A DNA stretch of 64,000 nucleotides from Escherichia phage phAPEC8, in the sequence record NC_020079.1, one strand, 5' to 3'. Positions 37,963 through 59,522 of this stretch are shown here, one piece after another. The translations under genes and the position numbers were made by a program. Numbering within the stretch: the first letter of the stretch is position 1; each line of letters opens with the position of its first letter. The notes below the pieces were generated by a model. That model was given only the letters and a program-made list of their open reading frames with translations. It ran no database searches and was not told the DNA's origin.

Positions 37963-38355
37963 TTACATTAATTTTGCACAGAAAGAGCGGAGTCTTTCCA
38001 TATCATCTTGCTCTAACAGGTATTTACCTTTACCTATTCCAACTCCAATTTCACCATTAGGAAAATGAACTATTTGCACTGGGAAACCTCCGAGTTTAAT
38101 TGTGGCAGCTTTGCCTTCTTCGTCTATAACGTTTCGGATTGTATCTTGCAGTGAAATGAATTCTTTGTTTGTAACAGTGGTTTCAATTATTTCAGATGTT
38201 TCGACACGAGCAGTTAGCTTCTTGTTTCCACCTTGAATAACCAAAATTTGAAAATAAAAAGAGTTGTCAAGACCTACAACATTTTTCTCAACTAGTGTCA
38301 AACTGGTATAGTTTCCATAAACAGTTTCAACAGCTATCTTAGAACGTTCAGTCAT
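37963..38355 (-). CDS. hypothetical protein
   Basis: 130-aa ORF between the SSB and nucleotidyltransferase genes; no recognisable motif. Confidence 0.45.
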   Translation of the reverse strand: MTERSKIAVETVYGNYTSLTLVEKNVVGLDNSFYFQILVIQGGNKKLTARVETSEIIETTVTNKEFISLQDTIRNVIDEEGKAATIKLGGFPVQIVHFPNGEIGVGIGKGKYLLEQDDMERLRSFCAKLM

Positions 38356-38400
38356 TGAATGCTATCCTATCATAAAATGTTTAATATTGTCAAGCTTTAA

Positions 38401-42221: not shown

Positions 42222-43015
42222 TATCCCTCCTTTCTAATGTTCTCCAGAACCCACTGAAGTTCTTTTAAACTTAAACTTCTTACTCCCGCAGTTTTACTAG
42301 CTTCAGCTTTAAGTAACGGGTAAGCCTCAATGATACGCGTTTTAAGATCAGAAGTCAAGGCTTTTAAAAAATAGGTAGATGCTTCAGATAAAGAATCCTC
42401 TTCTGATAACACTTTACCTGCACTTGCTCCCGCTCTCCTAACGGCTATGTCGTAGTCTTTACTGTTGCCTAATACGAATAGTCGATTTTCTCCTAAAACA
42501 ACGGGAGAACGCTTCTCGTTGCGTTTAATCCATATCTGGAATACACAAGGAACATCCCAAGGTTCTCCATGAAGAATAAAAGATCCTTTTGGACATTCTT
42601 CTTCGTAAAGAAGATGCATGTGGGGATTTAGTTTGTGTGCAAAAAAGATTTTTTGAAATGTGCGAGGCAAGATAAAACAAATACCACCTTCGTTATCCAG
42701 CATTTCAGCACAATGGTTAAAGAATTTAATGGCAAGACTAGCATTTTTTCCAAACGGAGGATTACCGACAAAAGCAGTTACACTGCCAACAGACTCAACA
42801 GATTGAGCTAAAAAATCTGCCTCAATACAATCTTCAAACTTAGGGTCAATATCAAAAGAAGTTATGTTTTTAAAACAAGAAGAGAAAGCTCCTTCTCCCG
42901 CAGATGGTTCTACGTAGTTAGCTTCCTCTCCAAAAATTTCTTTGATCTTATCACATAAGAACCCCGCATAAGCGGGGTTAGTGTAATATTGATCAAGTGT
43001 GTTCAACTTGCTCAA
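42221..43015 (-). CDS. SAM-dependent methyltransferase, N6-adenine/N4-cytosine DNA MTase-like (NPPF motif)
   Basis: 264 aa; motif I-like VEPSAGEGAF and motif IV VGNPPFG; translationally coupled to the DNA polymerase gene. Confidence 0.55.
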   Translation of the reverse strand: MSKLNTLDQYYTNPAYAGFLCDKIKEIFGEEANYVEPSAGEGAFSSCFKNITSFDIDPKFEDCIEADFLAQSVESVGSVTAFVGNPPFGKNASLAIKFFNHCAEMLDNEGGICFILPRTFQKIFFAHKLNPHMHLLYEEECPKGSFILHGEPWDVPCVFQIWIKRNEKRSPVVLGENRLFVLGNSKDYDIAVRRAGASAGKVLSEEDSLSEASTYFLKALTSDLKTRIIEAYPLLKAEASKTAGVRSLSLKELQWVLENIRKEG

Positions 43016-50049: not shown

Positions 50050-50069
50050 GAGGGGGATTTCTCCCCCTC
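50050..50069 (-). terminator. stem-loop downstream of TerD-like gene (possible terminator, weak U-tract)
   Basis: Perfect stem GAGGGGGA/TCCCCCTC with TTTC loop; minus-strand downstream is UUGCAAUAAA. Confidence 0.3.
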
Positions 50070-56355: not shown

Positions 56356-56527
56356 TTTGACTATTAATACATCTGTGTTTGAAATCTCCAGAGAAGCAAT
56401 AAAGTTGCTCTCCATCTCGGTATAAACTCACTTTACTGCCGTTGATTACGCTTGTCAATACAAAAATTACAACAAACAACCCTATTGCAAAACAAATATT
56501 TTCAAACACAACCAACAAGTATTTCAT
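56282..56527 (-). CDS. small membrane protein overlapping the lipoprotein gene start
   Basis: 81-aa ORF with N-terminal TM helix (LLVVFENICFAIGLFVVIFVL); its 3' part overlaps the lipoprotein gene in another frame, so true extent is uncertain. Confidence 0.3.
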   Translation of the reverse strand: MKYLLVVFENICFAIGLFVVIFVLTSVINGSKVSLYRDGEQLYCFSGDFKHRCINSQNEESKYEKTSPDFNWLYLFNSLRG

Positions 56528-56874
56528 TTTAAAAATACCTCATCATCAGTCTCATTATCCCAGAAGAACAAATCCCAACCATTCGGATCATTCCATTTGG
56601 CTGCTGGAGAAGTCCATATTTGTTCGATATCAATATTCAAAACTTCACCGTTTCGTTTTGAAACAGCTTTAGTTAATTCCCAACGAGATACAGGCTCTAC
56701 TTCCCCTGAACCACTCCCACAACAAGCTACCACGTTAGGAGGCAAATTAATTGGATCTTTGGTCACGATCATAACGCTTACCCCAGGGTAAACTTTTGAA
56801 AGATAATCTAAAACGTAATCCACATCACCAGATAAATCCCAAACAAGTTCTTGAATTTCATCAAAATTATTCAT
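56524..56874 (-). CDS. hypothetical protein
   Basis: 116-aa acidic ORF immediately downstream of the TerC-like gene. Confidence 0.45.
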   Translation of the reverse strand: MNNFDEIQELVWDLSGDVDYVLDYLSKVYPGVSVMIVTKDPINLPPNVVACCGSGSGEVEPVSRWELTKAVSKRNGEVLNIDIEQIWTSPAAKWNDPNGWDLFFWDNETDDEVFLK

Positions 56875-56916
56875 AAGTCTCTCCTATAAAATAGCCTCCC
56901 GAAGGAGGCTCATCTA

Positions 56917-57891
56917 TTAAACAGCAGCTTCTTCTTTTTCAGGGAAGATAAAGCTTGCAATAACACCAAGAGCTAATGTGCCTAGAACAATCATCAGACT
57001 TACGTTAGGGGAAATATCATGCGGGAGGAATGACCACTTGGCATGAAGTGTTTCACCGAACGGGTGATACATAAGTTTAGCACCGACAAATACCAGAACC
57101 ACAGCAACAGCTTTCTCTAAGTGAACCAGATATTTCACAGCCACACTTAACACAAAGAAAAGTGCACGTAAACCAAGAACAGCCATCAGCATTGCAGAAT
57201 AAACTAGCAGAGGTTCTTGTGTCACACCGATCACAGCCGGAACTGAATCAAAAGAGAAGACAATATCTGTAAGCTCAATAACAAACACACAAAGAAGAGC
57301 AGGAGTTGCATATTTAATACCATTCTTAATGGTGATGAACTTTTCACCATCTAGTGCATTGTGCACAGGCAGAACTTTACCTACTAAACGAACAGCCCAA
57401 TGCTTAGAGTAATCAATATCCTCTTCTTCGTCACCACCTTTGATGATAGCCACGGCAGACCAAGCTACAATCAAACCGAACAACACTTGGACCGACCAAT
57501 GAAGGTTAAACAAAGCGGTCCCTGCTGCAACAAAAATACCTCGGAAGACAATGGCTCCTGCAATCCCCCAAAGTAAAATCTTATGTTGGAGATGTGTGCT
57601 CTTAATTCCAAAGCTTGCAAAAATTGCCATGAACACCATCAAGTTATCTACAGAAAGACTCTTTTCCAACACATAGCCACTTAGGAAAAGCGCGGCAAAC
57701 TCTTTACCATGTTCTACCCAAATGAATGCGTAATATCCTAAAGCTAAAGCAATCCAAAAAACAGACCAAAGCAAAGCAGATTTAATTCCAATTTCTTTAT
57801 TCTCTTTATGACCAAAGAAATCGATACCAATAGACAATGCTAAAATACCAACCAAAACAACTACATCAATAATGGGGAAACCAAGTTGCAT
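56917..57891 (-). CDS. TerC-family integral membrane protein
   Basis: 324 aa, multi-pass hydrophobic; contains EKSLSVDNLMVF and ELTDIVFSFDSVPAVIG, matching the two conserved TerC blocks (SxDN and ExxDxxFxxDSxPA). Confidence 0.6.
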   Translation of the reverse strand: MQLGFPIIDVVVLVGILALSIGIDFFGHKENKEIGIKSALLWSVFWIALALGYYAFIWVEHGKEFAALFLSGYVLEKSLSVDNLMVFMAIFASFGIKSTHLQHKILLWGIAGAIVFRGIFVAAGTALFNLHWSVQVLFGLIVAWSAVAIIKGGDEEEDIDYSKHWAVRLVGKVLPVHNALDGEKFITIKNGIKYATPALLCVFVIELTDIVFSFDSVPAVIGVTQEPLLVYSAMLMAVLGLRALFFVLSVAVKYLVHLEKAVAVVLVFVGAKLMYHPFGETLHAKWSFLPHDISPNVSLMIVLGTLALGVIASFIFPEKEEAAV

Positions 57892-57910
57892 TATTTTCTC
57901 CTTTCTCTTT

Positions 57911-57929
57911 GCGGGGAACCACTCCCCGC
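57911..57929 (-). promoter_or_regulatory. 5'-UTR stem-loop upstream of the TerC-like gene
   Basis: Stem GCGGGGA/TCCCCGC with 5-nt loop, 20 nt upstream of the ATG at 57891 and downstream of a promoter-like element; no U-tract. Confidence 0.3.
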
Positions 57930-57941
57930 CTCATGTGATAC

Positions 57942-57969
57942 ATCTTACTCTATTCTAAAACTTTGTCAA
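57942..57969 (-). promoter_or_regulatory. possible sigma70-like promoter (TTGACA-N16-TAAGAT) upstream of the TerC-like gene
   Basis: Consensus -35 TTGACA (57964-57969) with a weak -10 TAAGAT (57942-57947). Confidence 0.3.
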
Positions 57970-57972
57970 CAC

Positions 57973-58194
57973 TTATTTTGAAGAACTTGAGGAAAAGATC
58001 CCACGTAGTACAGCCATGATAAATGCCACACACACCACAGTCCAGAAGGTGACAGGAACAGTGATATCTGTGTGACCCATCATTTCAACAACGTAGTTAT
58101 AAGCCAGCAGCAGAAGCCATGCTGGAATCATACTAATCAGAAAAGCAATAACAAACACAATAATCACTGCAAGAATACCTGCTAAAACGCCCAT
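57973..58194 (-). CDS. small hydrophobic membrane protein (3 predicted TM segments)
   Basis: 73 aa, almost entirely hydrophobic (ILAVIIVFVIAFLISMI, WLLLLAYNYVV, VTFWTVVCVAFIMAVL). Confidence 0.45.
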   Translation of the reverse strand: MGVLAGILAVIIVFVIAFLISMIPAWLLLLAYNYVVEMMGHTDITVPVTFWTVVCVAFIMAVLRGIFSSSSSK

Positions 58195-58207
58195 AATATT
58201 TCTCCTC

Positions 58208-58681
58208 TTAAAGTTTATAAATAGTCACATCGTGACCTGTTTTTACTAAAGTTTCTTCAATCATCACTTGGATGATAGCCCAATTACCTCCAGCATGTCC
58301 AGCGCCAATCATAGGTAAGCCGATCTTACATTTTTGGTCACGGAGAAGCAAATCGTTAGCCATAGCTATTAGTGCATCGTAAAGTGCATCATAGTCCAAC
58401 TGACGACCTTTAGCATTGTATCCGTAACGGTATTGCCCGTATAGATTATATACCAAAGGGTCTGATTGTTCGTCTGGCACTCCTAAACTAAAACAACCTA
58501 GTTTACTTTGATCACCAGCCATTGTGTCTAAGTCTGCTGCATATGCGTAAGGAAATGCTCGTTTGATTTGTGGGGCAATACCTGCCCCCATATTACACAT
58601 ACAGTTGCAACAATGAGCAATAACAGTTACTTCACCTGCTTTAGCGGCATCAATAAGATTACCTGTTTTCATTTTAAGCAT
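58208..58681 (-). CDS. macro domain protein, TARG1/DarG-like (ADP-ribose-processing hydrolase)
   Basis: Track ORF 58208..58786 trimmed to the ATG with SD AAGGAG just after the upstream stop; motifs VIAHCCNCMCNMGAGIA and GLPMIGAGHAGGNW...VTIYKL parallel human TARG1 (AHCISEDCRMGAGIA, MPRIGCGLDRLQW...ITVYTL, from memory). Confidence 0.65.
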   Translation of the reverse strand: MLKMKTGNLIDAAKAGEVTVIAHCCNCMCNMGAGIAPQIKRAFPYAYAADLDTMAGDQSKLGCFSLGVPDEQSDPLVYNLYGQYRYGYNAKGRQLDYDALYDALIAMANDLLLRDQKCKIGLPMIGAGHAGGNWAIIQVMIEETLVKTGHDVTIYKL

Positions 58682-58694
58682 TTTTAGCTCCTTA

Positions 58695-59522
58695 TTACAG
58701 AATGTGTTGTTTTGTGTAACGATCCAAGAATTCAAAGTTTTCAGCATACTTTGAAATTCGGTTGTAACCTTCTCCCAAGCATCCAAAGAAAAGTTGCTCT
58801 ACATAGTAATGTGGCAATTGGCTAAGAATGATTTTGAAGTCTTCATGATTTTGGCCCATAAGATACTTAATAGGACGAACAAGACACTGTGCATCACGTT
58901 CTTCATTAATCATTTTAACAAACGCTTCCGGTGTATTAATGTAGTTAAAATTCAGTTTAGCTTCGGTATCTGCTTGATTACCTTCATATTTTGCAAAATA
59001 CAGGAAGTAAACATCATTTTTAACTTGATTTTCATTAAGGATCTCAATCAGTTTGTCTTCATGCGTTCCAGTGATATTTACATCATCAATGAATACAAGC
59101 TTCTTATCACCCCAGAATTCTTTGTTACAGTAGAATGTATCCCCATCAATAAGTTTCTTACGACTAGCTTTATCCAAGAAACCATAATCGTTGATATAGC
59201 TAACTTTACGATGAATAATGTCCAGTTCTGCTGAACGACCTTGATCATATTGTGATTGCAACATATTAAAGTAATTAATAAAATGATCTGTCATCATTGT
59301 TGCAGCATTATGCACATGGTTGTAAGGAGAAGGAATGATAACAAATTGTTCCCCAATATGTTTCATTGCCACTTGAGCAAAAAACTGAAGTGCCAATTCT
59401 TTACCCATACGACGCGCGGCTTGGTTACTACCAAATTTCAATTTTGAATAATCTTGGATATCAAAAGTAGCAGTTTCCAGGTCATCAAATTTATTTGCAA
59501 AAATTTGAGTTTGATTACGCAT
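58695..59522 (-). CDS. type I phosphoribosyltransferase-fold protein (PRPP-binding loop)
   Basis: 275 aa; KKLVFIDDVNITGTHEDK matches the PRPP-binding motif (hydrophobic-DD-x-x-TG-x-T) of type I PRTases and PRPP synthetase homologues. Confidence 0.5.
   Translation of the reverse strand: MRNQTQIFANKFDDLETATFDIQDYSKLKFGSNQAARRMGKELALQFFAQVAMKHIGEQFVIIPSPYNHVHNAATMMTDHFINYFNMLQSQYDQGRSAELDIIHRKVSYINDYGFLDKASRKKLIDGDTFYCNKEFWGDKKLVFIDDVNITGTHEDKLIEILNENQVKNDVYFLYFAKYEGNQADTEAKLNFNYINTPEAFVKMINEERDAQCLVRPIKYLMGQNHEDFKIILSQLPHYYVEQLFFGCLGEGYNRISKYAENFEFLDRYTKQHIL

Follow-up and report, generated by a model that had tools for sequence, protein, structure and literature searches.

A repeated promoter and stem-loop cassette ahead of the TerC gene of Escherichia phage phAPEC8 and its relatives

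Host TerC/Alx genes are commonly under riboswitch control, and the TerC-family gene of Escherichia phage phAPEC8, which is preceded by promoter-like hexamers and a G+C-rich stem-loop, raises the question of whether this leader is a regulator of its own gene or an expression unit of a more general kind. We analysed the element within a 64,000-nucleotide stretch of the phAPEC8 genome (NC_020079.1; hereafter the window), to which all coordinates refer unless another genome is named and in which the TerC element is read on the minus strand. Comparison with related sequences indicates that it very probably belongs to a family of early cassettes repeated ahead of unrelated small genes and is not a TerC-specific regulator. 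On balance we favour reading it as an early sigma-70 promoter and 5′ leader cassette, with the hairpin as a stabiliser, situated at a recombination joint.

Conservation of the promoter and leader hairpin

The original prediction described a consensus -35 hexamer with a weak -10 at 57911-57969, followed by a perfect 7-bp stem-loop about 20 nt before the start codon, and both are present there on the minus strand, the stem ending 19 nt before the TerC ATG at 57891 (Table 1). The minus-strand sequence of 57985-57880, 5′ to 3′, is ttcttcaaaaTAAgtgTTGACAaagttttagaatagagTAAGATgtatcacatgagGCGGGGAgtggtTCCCCGCaaagagaaAGGAGaaaataATG. The promoter TTGACA-N16-TAAGAT received a score of 10/12 from the promoter scanner and the 15 nt upstream of its -35 are 73 % A+T, compared with a mean of 77 % in the family copies described below and 61 % in the genome. 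By the usual distance of 6-8 nt from the -10, the transcription start site (TSS) would fall at about 57936-57934. The stem, made of six G-C pairs and one A-U pair (arms 57929-57923 and 57917-57911), closes a 5-nt loop, GUGGU, and the hairpin alone is predicted to fold at -12.9 kcal/mol (RNAfold), with the Shine-Dalgarno (SD) sequence AGGAG at 57902-57898.

Promoter-like sites occur in this region at chance frequency, the scanner having found 11 in 3 kb against 9.4 +/- 3.3 expected from shuffles, so that hexamers alone prove nothing. The hairpin is well above chance: the window contains 5 perfect stems of 7 bp or more in which six or more pairs are G-C, whereas dinucleotide shuffles gave 0.37 +/- 0.66, and roughly 5e-4 such stems are expected per 80-nt spacer. 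That promoter and hairpin are both real is settled, at the level of sequence, by conservation. The regions upstream of TerC that were collected from GenBank and IMG/VR relatives comprise 8 distinct sequences with 6 stem variants. TTGAC of the -35 and T1, A2 and T6 of the -10 (TAnnnT) are invariant in 8/8 and the spacer between the hexamers is fixed at 16 nt in length while divergent in sequence; to judge from these alignments, fixed spacing and invariant hexamer positions together mark the element as a functional promoter.

The stem variants are GCGGGGA/UCCCCGC, GCGGGGAA/UUCCCCGC, AGGGAGAG/CUCUCCCU, AGAGGGAG/CUCCCUCU, GCGGAGG/CCUCCGC and AGAGGGGG/CUCCCUCU, the last with one G-U pair. All seven core pairs are paired in every orthologous sequence and five of the seven show compensatory double changes, whereas sliding the 3′ partner by 1-3 columns as a control left pairing at only 50-59 %. 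The single G-U wobble, found in Klebsiella phage phi1_175008, lies on the sense strand (the antisense strand would have a C-A mismatch) and thus fits an RNA structure in the mRNA. Klebsiella-type orthologues keep the hairpin with a wholly replaced stem sequence and a spacer of 8 nt between -10 and stem. Promoter and hairpin occur together in 6 lineages and are both missing from 2, Klebsiella phage FBKp34 and an IMG/VR contig (L022), and thus travel together.

A leader linked to TerC across phage families was considered and rejected, as the TerC loci of Grimontviridae, Schitoviridae and Ounavirinae-like phages lack the cassette, TerC there being either directly adjacent to the gene before it or preceded by an ordinary terminator. 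Vibrio phage PhiImVa-1 (L016) and Pectobacterium phage Wc4 (L017) have a G+C hairpin shortly before the TerC SD, that of Wc4 having a T-tract and resembling an ordinary terminator. TerC lies among terB/terD-like genes in several phages of other families.

A family of early cassettes

A blastn search with a 96-nt region spanning the element located 2-6 places per Stephanstirmvirinae genome. phi92 has two further copies, upstream of gp226 and gp227. The most extensive set was found in Escherichia phage vB_EcoM_ASO2A (ASO2A; Phapecoctavirus, Stephanstirmvirinae), which is 99.7 % identical to phAPEC8 in the TerC region, about 50 other phAPEC8-like phages being 94-99 % identical. The ends of the ASO2A genome form a continuous block of small plus-strand open reading frames (ORFs), nearly each of them preceded by a cassette, and we identified 21 full copies there, every one of them plus-strand and lying within either 146.6-151.6 kb or 0.2-4.7 kb, in addition to the TerC copy. 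A hidden Markov model (HMM) of 22 copies recovered these 21 and detected none in ASO2A 50-66 kb besides the TerC copy (nhmmer), and in the window gave one match only, at 57970-57890 (E = 9.3e-13). Local blastn and nhmmer revealed no further copies in the window, with a promoter-only resemblance at 43528-43482. An HMM built from 20 non-TerC copies likewise gave a single window match, at 57970-57891 (E = 5.1e-11, model positions 2-83 of 85), while a covariance model built from TerC orthologues alone recovered early copies, the best of them at E = 2e-9. This reciprocal recovery by a TerC-free and a TerC-only model removes circularity from the assignment. The family extends to the Vequintavirinae, where FV3 contains a copy at E = 3e-18 and CR9 a copy with the stem-loop GGCGGGGAGUGGUUCCCCGC, identical to that of the TerC copy. 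The proposal that the leader controls TerC specifically, in the manner of host TerC/Alx genes, does not survive this distribution, since a unit of ~85 nt that also precedes about 21 unrelated early ORFs in ASO2A, and others in phi92, FV3 and CR9, is not specific to TerC. No description of the cassette was found in the literature on phAPEC8/phi92/rV5-type phages.

The family consensus is TTGACA-N16/17-TA(A/T)nAT-GTATCACATAG-G(G)CGG...loop...CCGC(C/U)-(C)ACAACAGAAGAGAGAnnAUC-AUG. Within some 85 nt the cassette has an A+T-rich stretch, the -35 TTGACA (its TTGAC nearly invariant among the 22 copies), a 16-17-nt spacer, a TAnnnT -10, the GTATCACATAG block, the hairpin and a linker with SD leading to the ATG. 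The stem follows the -10 at a distance of 10-12 nt and ends 17-27 nt before the ATG, and the linker is purine/CA-rich and unstructured. Because the copies differ in stem length, RNAalifold on a MAFFT alignment of the family produced a poor consensus and was replaced by folding each copy separately and by alignment guided by the covariance model. Each copy folds, with a core stem-loop of -6.4 to about -15 kcal/mol and extended stems reaching -20 kcal/mol.

A number of sequences outside these copies share parts of the arrangement. The exact 15-mer TATCACATAGGGCGG occurs at 26 loci in viral contigs, which is about chance, and the ~10 of these with HMM-supported cassettes have a support that is biased by the seed. 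TATCACATAGGGCGG with a weak hairpin, SD and ATG was also seen in ~42-kb siphoviruses (L079 3132-3194, L087, L063 and L072, comprising IMG/VR contigs, Klebsiella phage IME279 and E. coli phages sortkaff/Sortsne), where the exact 15-mer used as a seed makes for weak evidence of relatedness. Vibrio phage PVP52 (L061 905-1045, 1497-1554) has a 1-kb non-coding gap with six ~23-nt direct repeats, cctagg(cac/agg)tttgaaaaatttt, and within it a TAATAT-GTATCACATGG-hairpin segment sharing 85 % identity with the TerC leader in a stretch of 40 nt, a similarity that may be due to chance (blastn E 0.07). ASO2A itself contains a second promoter and hairpin unit outside the early region, on the minus strand at 45.3 kb (L057 45292-45385), in which TTGACT-N16-TATAAT is followed after 13 nt by GGGAGGA-ggtgag-TCCTCCC, an A-rich linker, AGGAG and an ATG. 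It lies upstream of ASO2A_111, just past thymidylate synthase, and is matched by the TerC-based covariance model at E = 8e-4.

Mosaicism, known cassettes and gene context

Two TerC alleles of about 72 % protein identity have been exchanged among otherwise near-identical Phapecoctavirus genomes. Compared with a contig designated L005, phAPEC8 shows 0 mismatches over 57999-57860, a span that takes in the cassette and runs 32 nt into TerC, and dense divergence beyond. The comparison with Schickermooser gives the opposite picture, with 47 mismatches in the gene of the upstream 73-amino acid protein and 12 in the cassette to 57893, followed by only 2 in the next 100 nt. The joints of the allele swap thereby map to 57999-57860 (L005) and 57893-57874 (Schickermooser). 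Against tuntematon TerC is divergent, but the sequences become at least 90-95 % identical again towards the 3′ end of the gene and its terminator (~56930-57000). The mismatch patterns against these three sequences indicate that cassette and terminator coincide with recombination joints, and the cassette may take a causal part in the exchange.

A cassette of this kind has a counterpart in the promoter-early stem-loops (PeSLs) of the T4-like phages RB49/phi1, PST and nt-1 (Arbiol et al. 2010, PMC2839356; Comeau et al. 2014, PMC4122927). In these units of ~100 bp a consensus sigma-70 promoter and a polyG/polyC stem-loop are combined with an A+T-rich stretch and with the SD belonging to the following gene. 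The units recur around ORFans in hyperplastic parts of the genome and bring about the shuffling of modules (PMC2839356; PMC4122927). In architecture, copy number and occurrence at mosaic joints the TerC cassette is a PeSL-like early promoter/stem-loop cassette. It shares the near-consensus sigma-70 promoter with A+T-rich stretch and the stable G-then-C stem-loop, and at 57970-57892 it fills the gap between the upstream stop codon (57975-57973) and the ATG at 57891. As with PeSLs many copies lie amid small ORFans, the 21 early copies of ASO2A being the example, although the TerC copy itself is outside the cluster, and the cassette is found at indel or replacement joints between close relatives, here in few comparisons. 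The two differ in lineage, Phapecoctavirus (Stephanstirmvirinae) and Vequintavirinae not being T4-like, and no sequence similarity to the T4-like cassettes was detected. They differ also in the place of the stem, which is almost uniformly 10-12 nt past the -10 and so would be part of the cassette's own transcript. The stem of the RB49/phi1 units is for the most part situated between the hexamers or overlaps them, and it is interpreted as terminating transcription from upstream. The additional conserved block GTATCACATAG before the stem is a further difference. One early ASO2A cassette at ~150.7 kb (L058 20717-20774) has a hairpin, ATAGCGCC/GGCGCTAT, that straddles its -10 TTATAAT, an arrangement typical of RB49/phi1 PeSLs.

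The locus may also be compared with a moron, the autonomous promoter-gene-terminator unit of the Hendrix model, in that TerC is a host-like accessory gene with its own predicted promoter and intrinsic terminator in a co-oriented block. Unlike a moron, TerC is not patchy in distribution, occurring in every Stephanstirmvirinae genome examined, and its G+C content is not deviant (40.2 % against 39.3 % for the window). The phage is moreover virulent, with no prophage expression, and the promoter is a generic phage cassette that was not brought in with the gene.

Table 1 Features of the phAPEC8 TerC locus in window coordinates
Feature	Position	Strand	Evidence or remark
Whole promoter-hairpin-leader cassette	57890..57970	-	Repeated early-cassette family member (nhmmer)
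Predicted -35 hexamer TTGACA, consensus	57969-57964	-	Promoter scan; conserved in orthologues and family copies
Predicted -10 hexamer TAAGAT, 4/6 vs TATAAT	57947-57942	-	Spacer to -35 of 16 nt
Conserved block GTATCACATGAG between -10 and stem	57930..57941	-	Family consensus GTATCACATAG
Leader hairpin GCGGGGA-GUGGU-UCCCCGC	57911..57929	-	Folding; orthologue and family covariation
Purine-rich unstructured linker AAAGAGAAAGGAGAAAAUA	57892..57910	-	Unpaired in all folds of TerC copy
TerC/Alx-family membrane protein gene, 324 amino acids	56917..57891	-	Pfam PF03741, E = 3e-40
Upstream hydrophobic ORF, 73 amino acids	57973..58194	-	ORF list; hypothetical protein in ASO2A
Intrinsic terminator closing TerC unit, AGCCUCC-UUCG-GGAGGCU then AUUUUAU	56883..56910 (hairpin 56910-56893)	-	Terminator scan

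Relatives annotate the gene as TerC/Alx and also as Alx-like, TIGR03718. It sits in a minus-strand metabolic gene block with nrdD-nrdG-HAD-PRTase-macro genes upstream, and the ASO2A annotation has no terminator between these and TerC, so that read-through from them is expected to add to TerC transcription. The ORF immediately upstream, whose stop codon ends 3 nt before the -35, gave no match in a Pfam search. At the other end, the 3′ terminator is called by both TransTermHP and WebGeSTer in ASO2A, and a hairpin with a short T run of varying quality (2-5 consecutive T) lies downstream of TerC in 9/9 Stephanstirmvirinae lineages examined. The SD of the next gene is no more than 3 nt past the U-tract of this terminator, and downstream genes would accordingly rely on terminator read-through or an unrecognised promoter. 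Both parts of the TerC element appear in the ASO2A GenBank record, the promoter labelled 'similar to TTGACA(N15-18)TATAAT with 2 bp mismatch' and the hairpin 'rho-independent terminator predicted by WebGeSTer', at which site TransTermHP made no call; these labels are purely computational calls (PMC10612097).

Three other sites in the window have a comparable stem or promoter. A perfect 8-bp G+C hairpin at 42960-42979, AACCCCGC-ataa-GCGGGGTT, has arms that are the reverse of the TerC-leader stem and lies inside an apparent coding region with a TTG start at ~43013 (minus strand). The hairpin GAGGGGGA-gaaa-TCCCCCTC at 50050-50069 (minus strand), without a U-tract, is directly upstream of a promoter-like TTGCAA-N17-TATACT, an order opposite to that of the TerC cassette. 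At 38355-38400 (minus strand) TTGACA-N18-TAGGAT is followed 8 nt past the hexamer by the ATG of a 130-amino acid ORF, and here the transcript would be near-leaderless or TAGGAT would be the SD of a read-through message.

Possible roles of the leader hairpin

The original suggestion of a promoter followed by a leader hairpin stands, in that a sigma-70-type promoter with a transcribed 5′-leader hairpin fits the anatomy best. The stem starts 8-12 nt after the -10, past the usual start window and at or after the predicted TSS, which would place the hairpin within the cassette's own transcript. In the arrangement that we favour, phAPEC8/phi92-type (Stephanstirmvirinae) and rV5-type Vequintavirinae phages would put the ~85-nt cassette before early genes, and unmodified host sigma-70 RNA polymerase would transcribe TerC from the onset of infection, besides read-through from upstream. 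Cassette and 3′ intrinsic terminator together would make TerC a self-contained promoter-leader-gene-terminator unit. The hairpin would lie ~3-7 nt from the 5′ end in the TerC copy and 0-2 nt from it in Klebsiella-type variants. The leader resembles those of E. coli ompA and papA and of T7 gene 10 in its stable hairpin, here predicted to lie near the 5′ end, and in the A-rich linker without structure and the strong, unmasked SD that come after it. In the T7 gene-10 leader the promoter is directly followed by a purine-then-pyrimidine 5′ stem-loop, an unstructured A-rich linker and the SD. The likeliest role of the hairpin would be to limit 5′-end-dependent decay by RppH and RNase E, and it may insulate the ribosome-binding site from upstream sequence as the ompA and T7 gene-10 stem-loops do. 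RppH and RNase E depend on a single-stranded 5′ end, which is why secondary structure there, a long-known stabiliser, protects E. coli mRNAs (reviewed in PMC3997798). We put forward the role of 5′-proximal stabilising and insulating hairpin as the most economical one, plausible but tentative, the stabiliser mechanism standing at somewhat under an even chance. An effect on translation, one of the roles first suggested, is unlikely to come about through masking of the SD. The hairpin is always dominant in leader folds of the 6 variants, and in 5/6 the centroid leaves both SD and AUG free of pairing, the exception being Schickermooser (L002), where GGAG of the SD is paired in the predicted structure. 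Sequestration of the SD by anti-SD pairing with the pyrimidine-rich 3′ arm was rejected on the same folds.

Several points weigh against the stabiliser cassette. Transcript maps for phAPEC8/phi92/rV5-type phages were not found in the literature. The predicted single-stranded 5′ tail of 3-7 nt in the TerC copy may, unlike that of the ompA type, be too long for protection, as a TSS 6 nt after the -10 would leave about 7 unpaired 5′ nt. Such a tail may exceed what ompA-type protection tolerates. Covariation in the family (27 sequences, 95 % of cells paired, 8/8 pairs with compensatory changes) was counted on an alignment fitted to the model's structure and so leans towards structure, and the inference of recombination is based on few pairwise comparisons. 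The GCGG/CCGC stem base and GTATCACATAG are conserved across early copies beyond the need of a purely structural stabiliser, which could reflect recognition by a factor or gene conversion among paralogues. Finally, a T4-like PeSL stem-loop from RB49/phi1 placed between promoter and lacZ cut expression as strongly as rrnB T1 (PMC2839356).

It is this lacZ result that keeps an attenuator role for G/C stem-loops as the main rival. The hairpin would in that case terminate or attenuate upstream transcripts, as in the PeSL model, and the promoter would restart transcription with TerC insulated from read-through. The WebGeSTer label in the ASO2A record agrees with this, as do the G+C-rich 7-bp stem, the short loop, the location in an intergenic spacer and the fact that no other hairpin separates successive cassette-driven genes in the early region. 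We nevertheless consider it unlikely. Judged by its sequence the hairpin is not a canonical terminator, for it lacks a 3′ U-tract and stands downstream and not upstream of a promoter. AAAGAGAA, which follows the TerC-copy stem, has 0 T in 8 nt. Family copies have a mean of 1.3 T in these 8 nt, with five or more in 1/22, and TerC orthologues at most 2-3, so that a U-tract is lacking in 21/22 copies and in 6/6 orthologous variants, whereas several other predicted terminators of the phage have T-tracts, including TerC's own. The terminator scan of the window did not list the hairpin, nor did TransTermHP call it in ASO2A. A stem 10-12 nt past the -10 would equally terminate transcripts from its own promoter, and an efficient terminator in that position would defeat the promoter, which makes the leader hairpin unlike one; a terminator would not need the tightly conserved distance between -10 and stem either. 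Far less can be said for a sensory leader proper to TerC, be it a mini riboswitch or a pH/Mn-responsive element like host alx/yybP-ykoY. The riboswitch control common among host TerC/Alx genes and the TIGR03718 label speak for it, and cassette family membership effectively refutes it, leaving it scarcely credible. Rfam searches of 56500-58700 at E <= 10 returned no relevant match, yybP-ykoY included, and only noise (snoRNA and csRNA fragments), in keeping with the earlier view that the element is too short for a known riboswitch. Rfam searches of 20 other phage TerC loci yielded tRNAs only and no yybP-ykoY, and of the early region nothing. The leader is only about 45 nt long with a single hairpin, serves about 21 unrelated ORFs as part of the cassette, and is not shared by the TerC genes of other phage families.

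The conservation of sequence beyond structure can be explained differently if GTATCACATAG and the hairpin form an RNA or DNA recognition site through which a factor of phage or host origin acts on every early transcript, possibly in nut/put-like antitermination, early-transcription shut-off, or as the target of an early-mRNA-specific nuclease or a translational operator. GCG and CCGC of the stem base are (nearly) invariant, loop positions U2 and G4 are invariant among TerC orthologues, the initial-transcribed block is kept in 22 copies and across Stephanstirmvirinae and Vequintavirinae, and the hairpin is fixed in position relative to the promoter. Klebsiella-type orthologues, on the other hand, swap the hairpin sequence entirely (AGAGGGAG/CUCCCUCU) and cut the spacer to 8 nt; recombinational homogenisation of paralogues can account for the conservation, antitermination is hardly needed with about 20 promoters in 10 kb, and neither an Rfam family match nor a candidate binding protein was identified. 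We regard such a site as distinctly unlikely, and hold in the same low regard the wider proposal that GTATCACATAG with the GCGG...CCGC hairpin is a factor-read, promoter-proximal cis signal of early promoters in several coliphage lineages (Stephanstirmvirinae, Vequintavirinae and possibly Sortsne/IME279-type and Vibrio siphoviruses). That the hairpin has no RNA function at all, the cassette being a DNA repeat for homologous recombination and gene shuffling with the stem-loop as a DNA-level site, would suit the recombination joints mapped to the boundary of cassette and ATG. It appears highly improbable, since a recombination repeat needs identity and not pairing, whereas pairing here is kept by compensatory changes despite replacement of the sequence, a sense-strand G-U wobble is tolerated, and spacing to both -10 and ATG is constrained.

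About 20 hairpins in phAPEC8-type genomes have been deposited as rho-independent terminators despite lacking U-tracts and following promoters. Should the less likely recognition site prove true, the GTATCACATAG-hairpin signal would constitute an undescribed class of phage regulatory RNA or DNA element, serving for example in protection, antitermination, translation or timed shut-off. As a compact natural promoter-leader-ribosome-binding site unit the cassette could serve phage engineering. For TerC, placement under a generic early-promoter cassette would imply expression from the first minutes of infection and not host-like sensing of metals or pH. For the phages concerned, several of which were isolated for phage therapy or biocontrol, the family carries the concept of mobile promoter/stem-loop cassettes past the T4-like phages into two more groups of large coliphages and points to a general route by which accessory genes may be shuffled.

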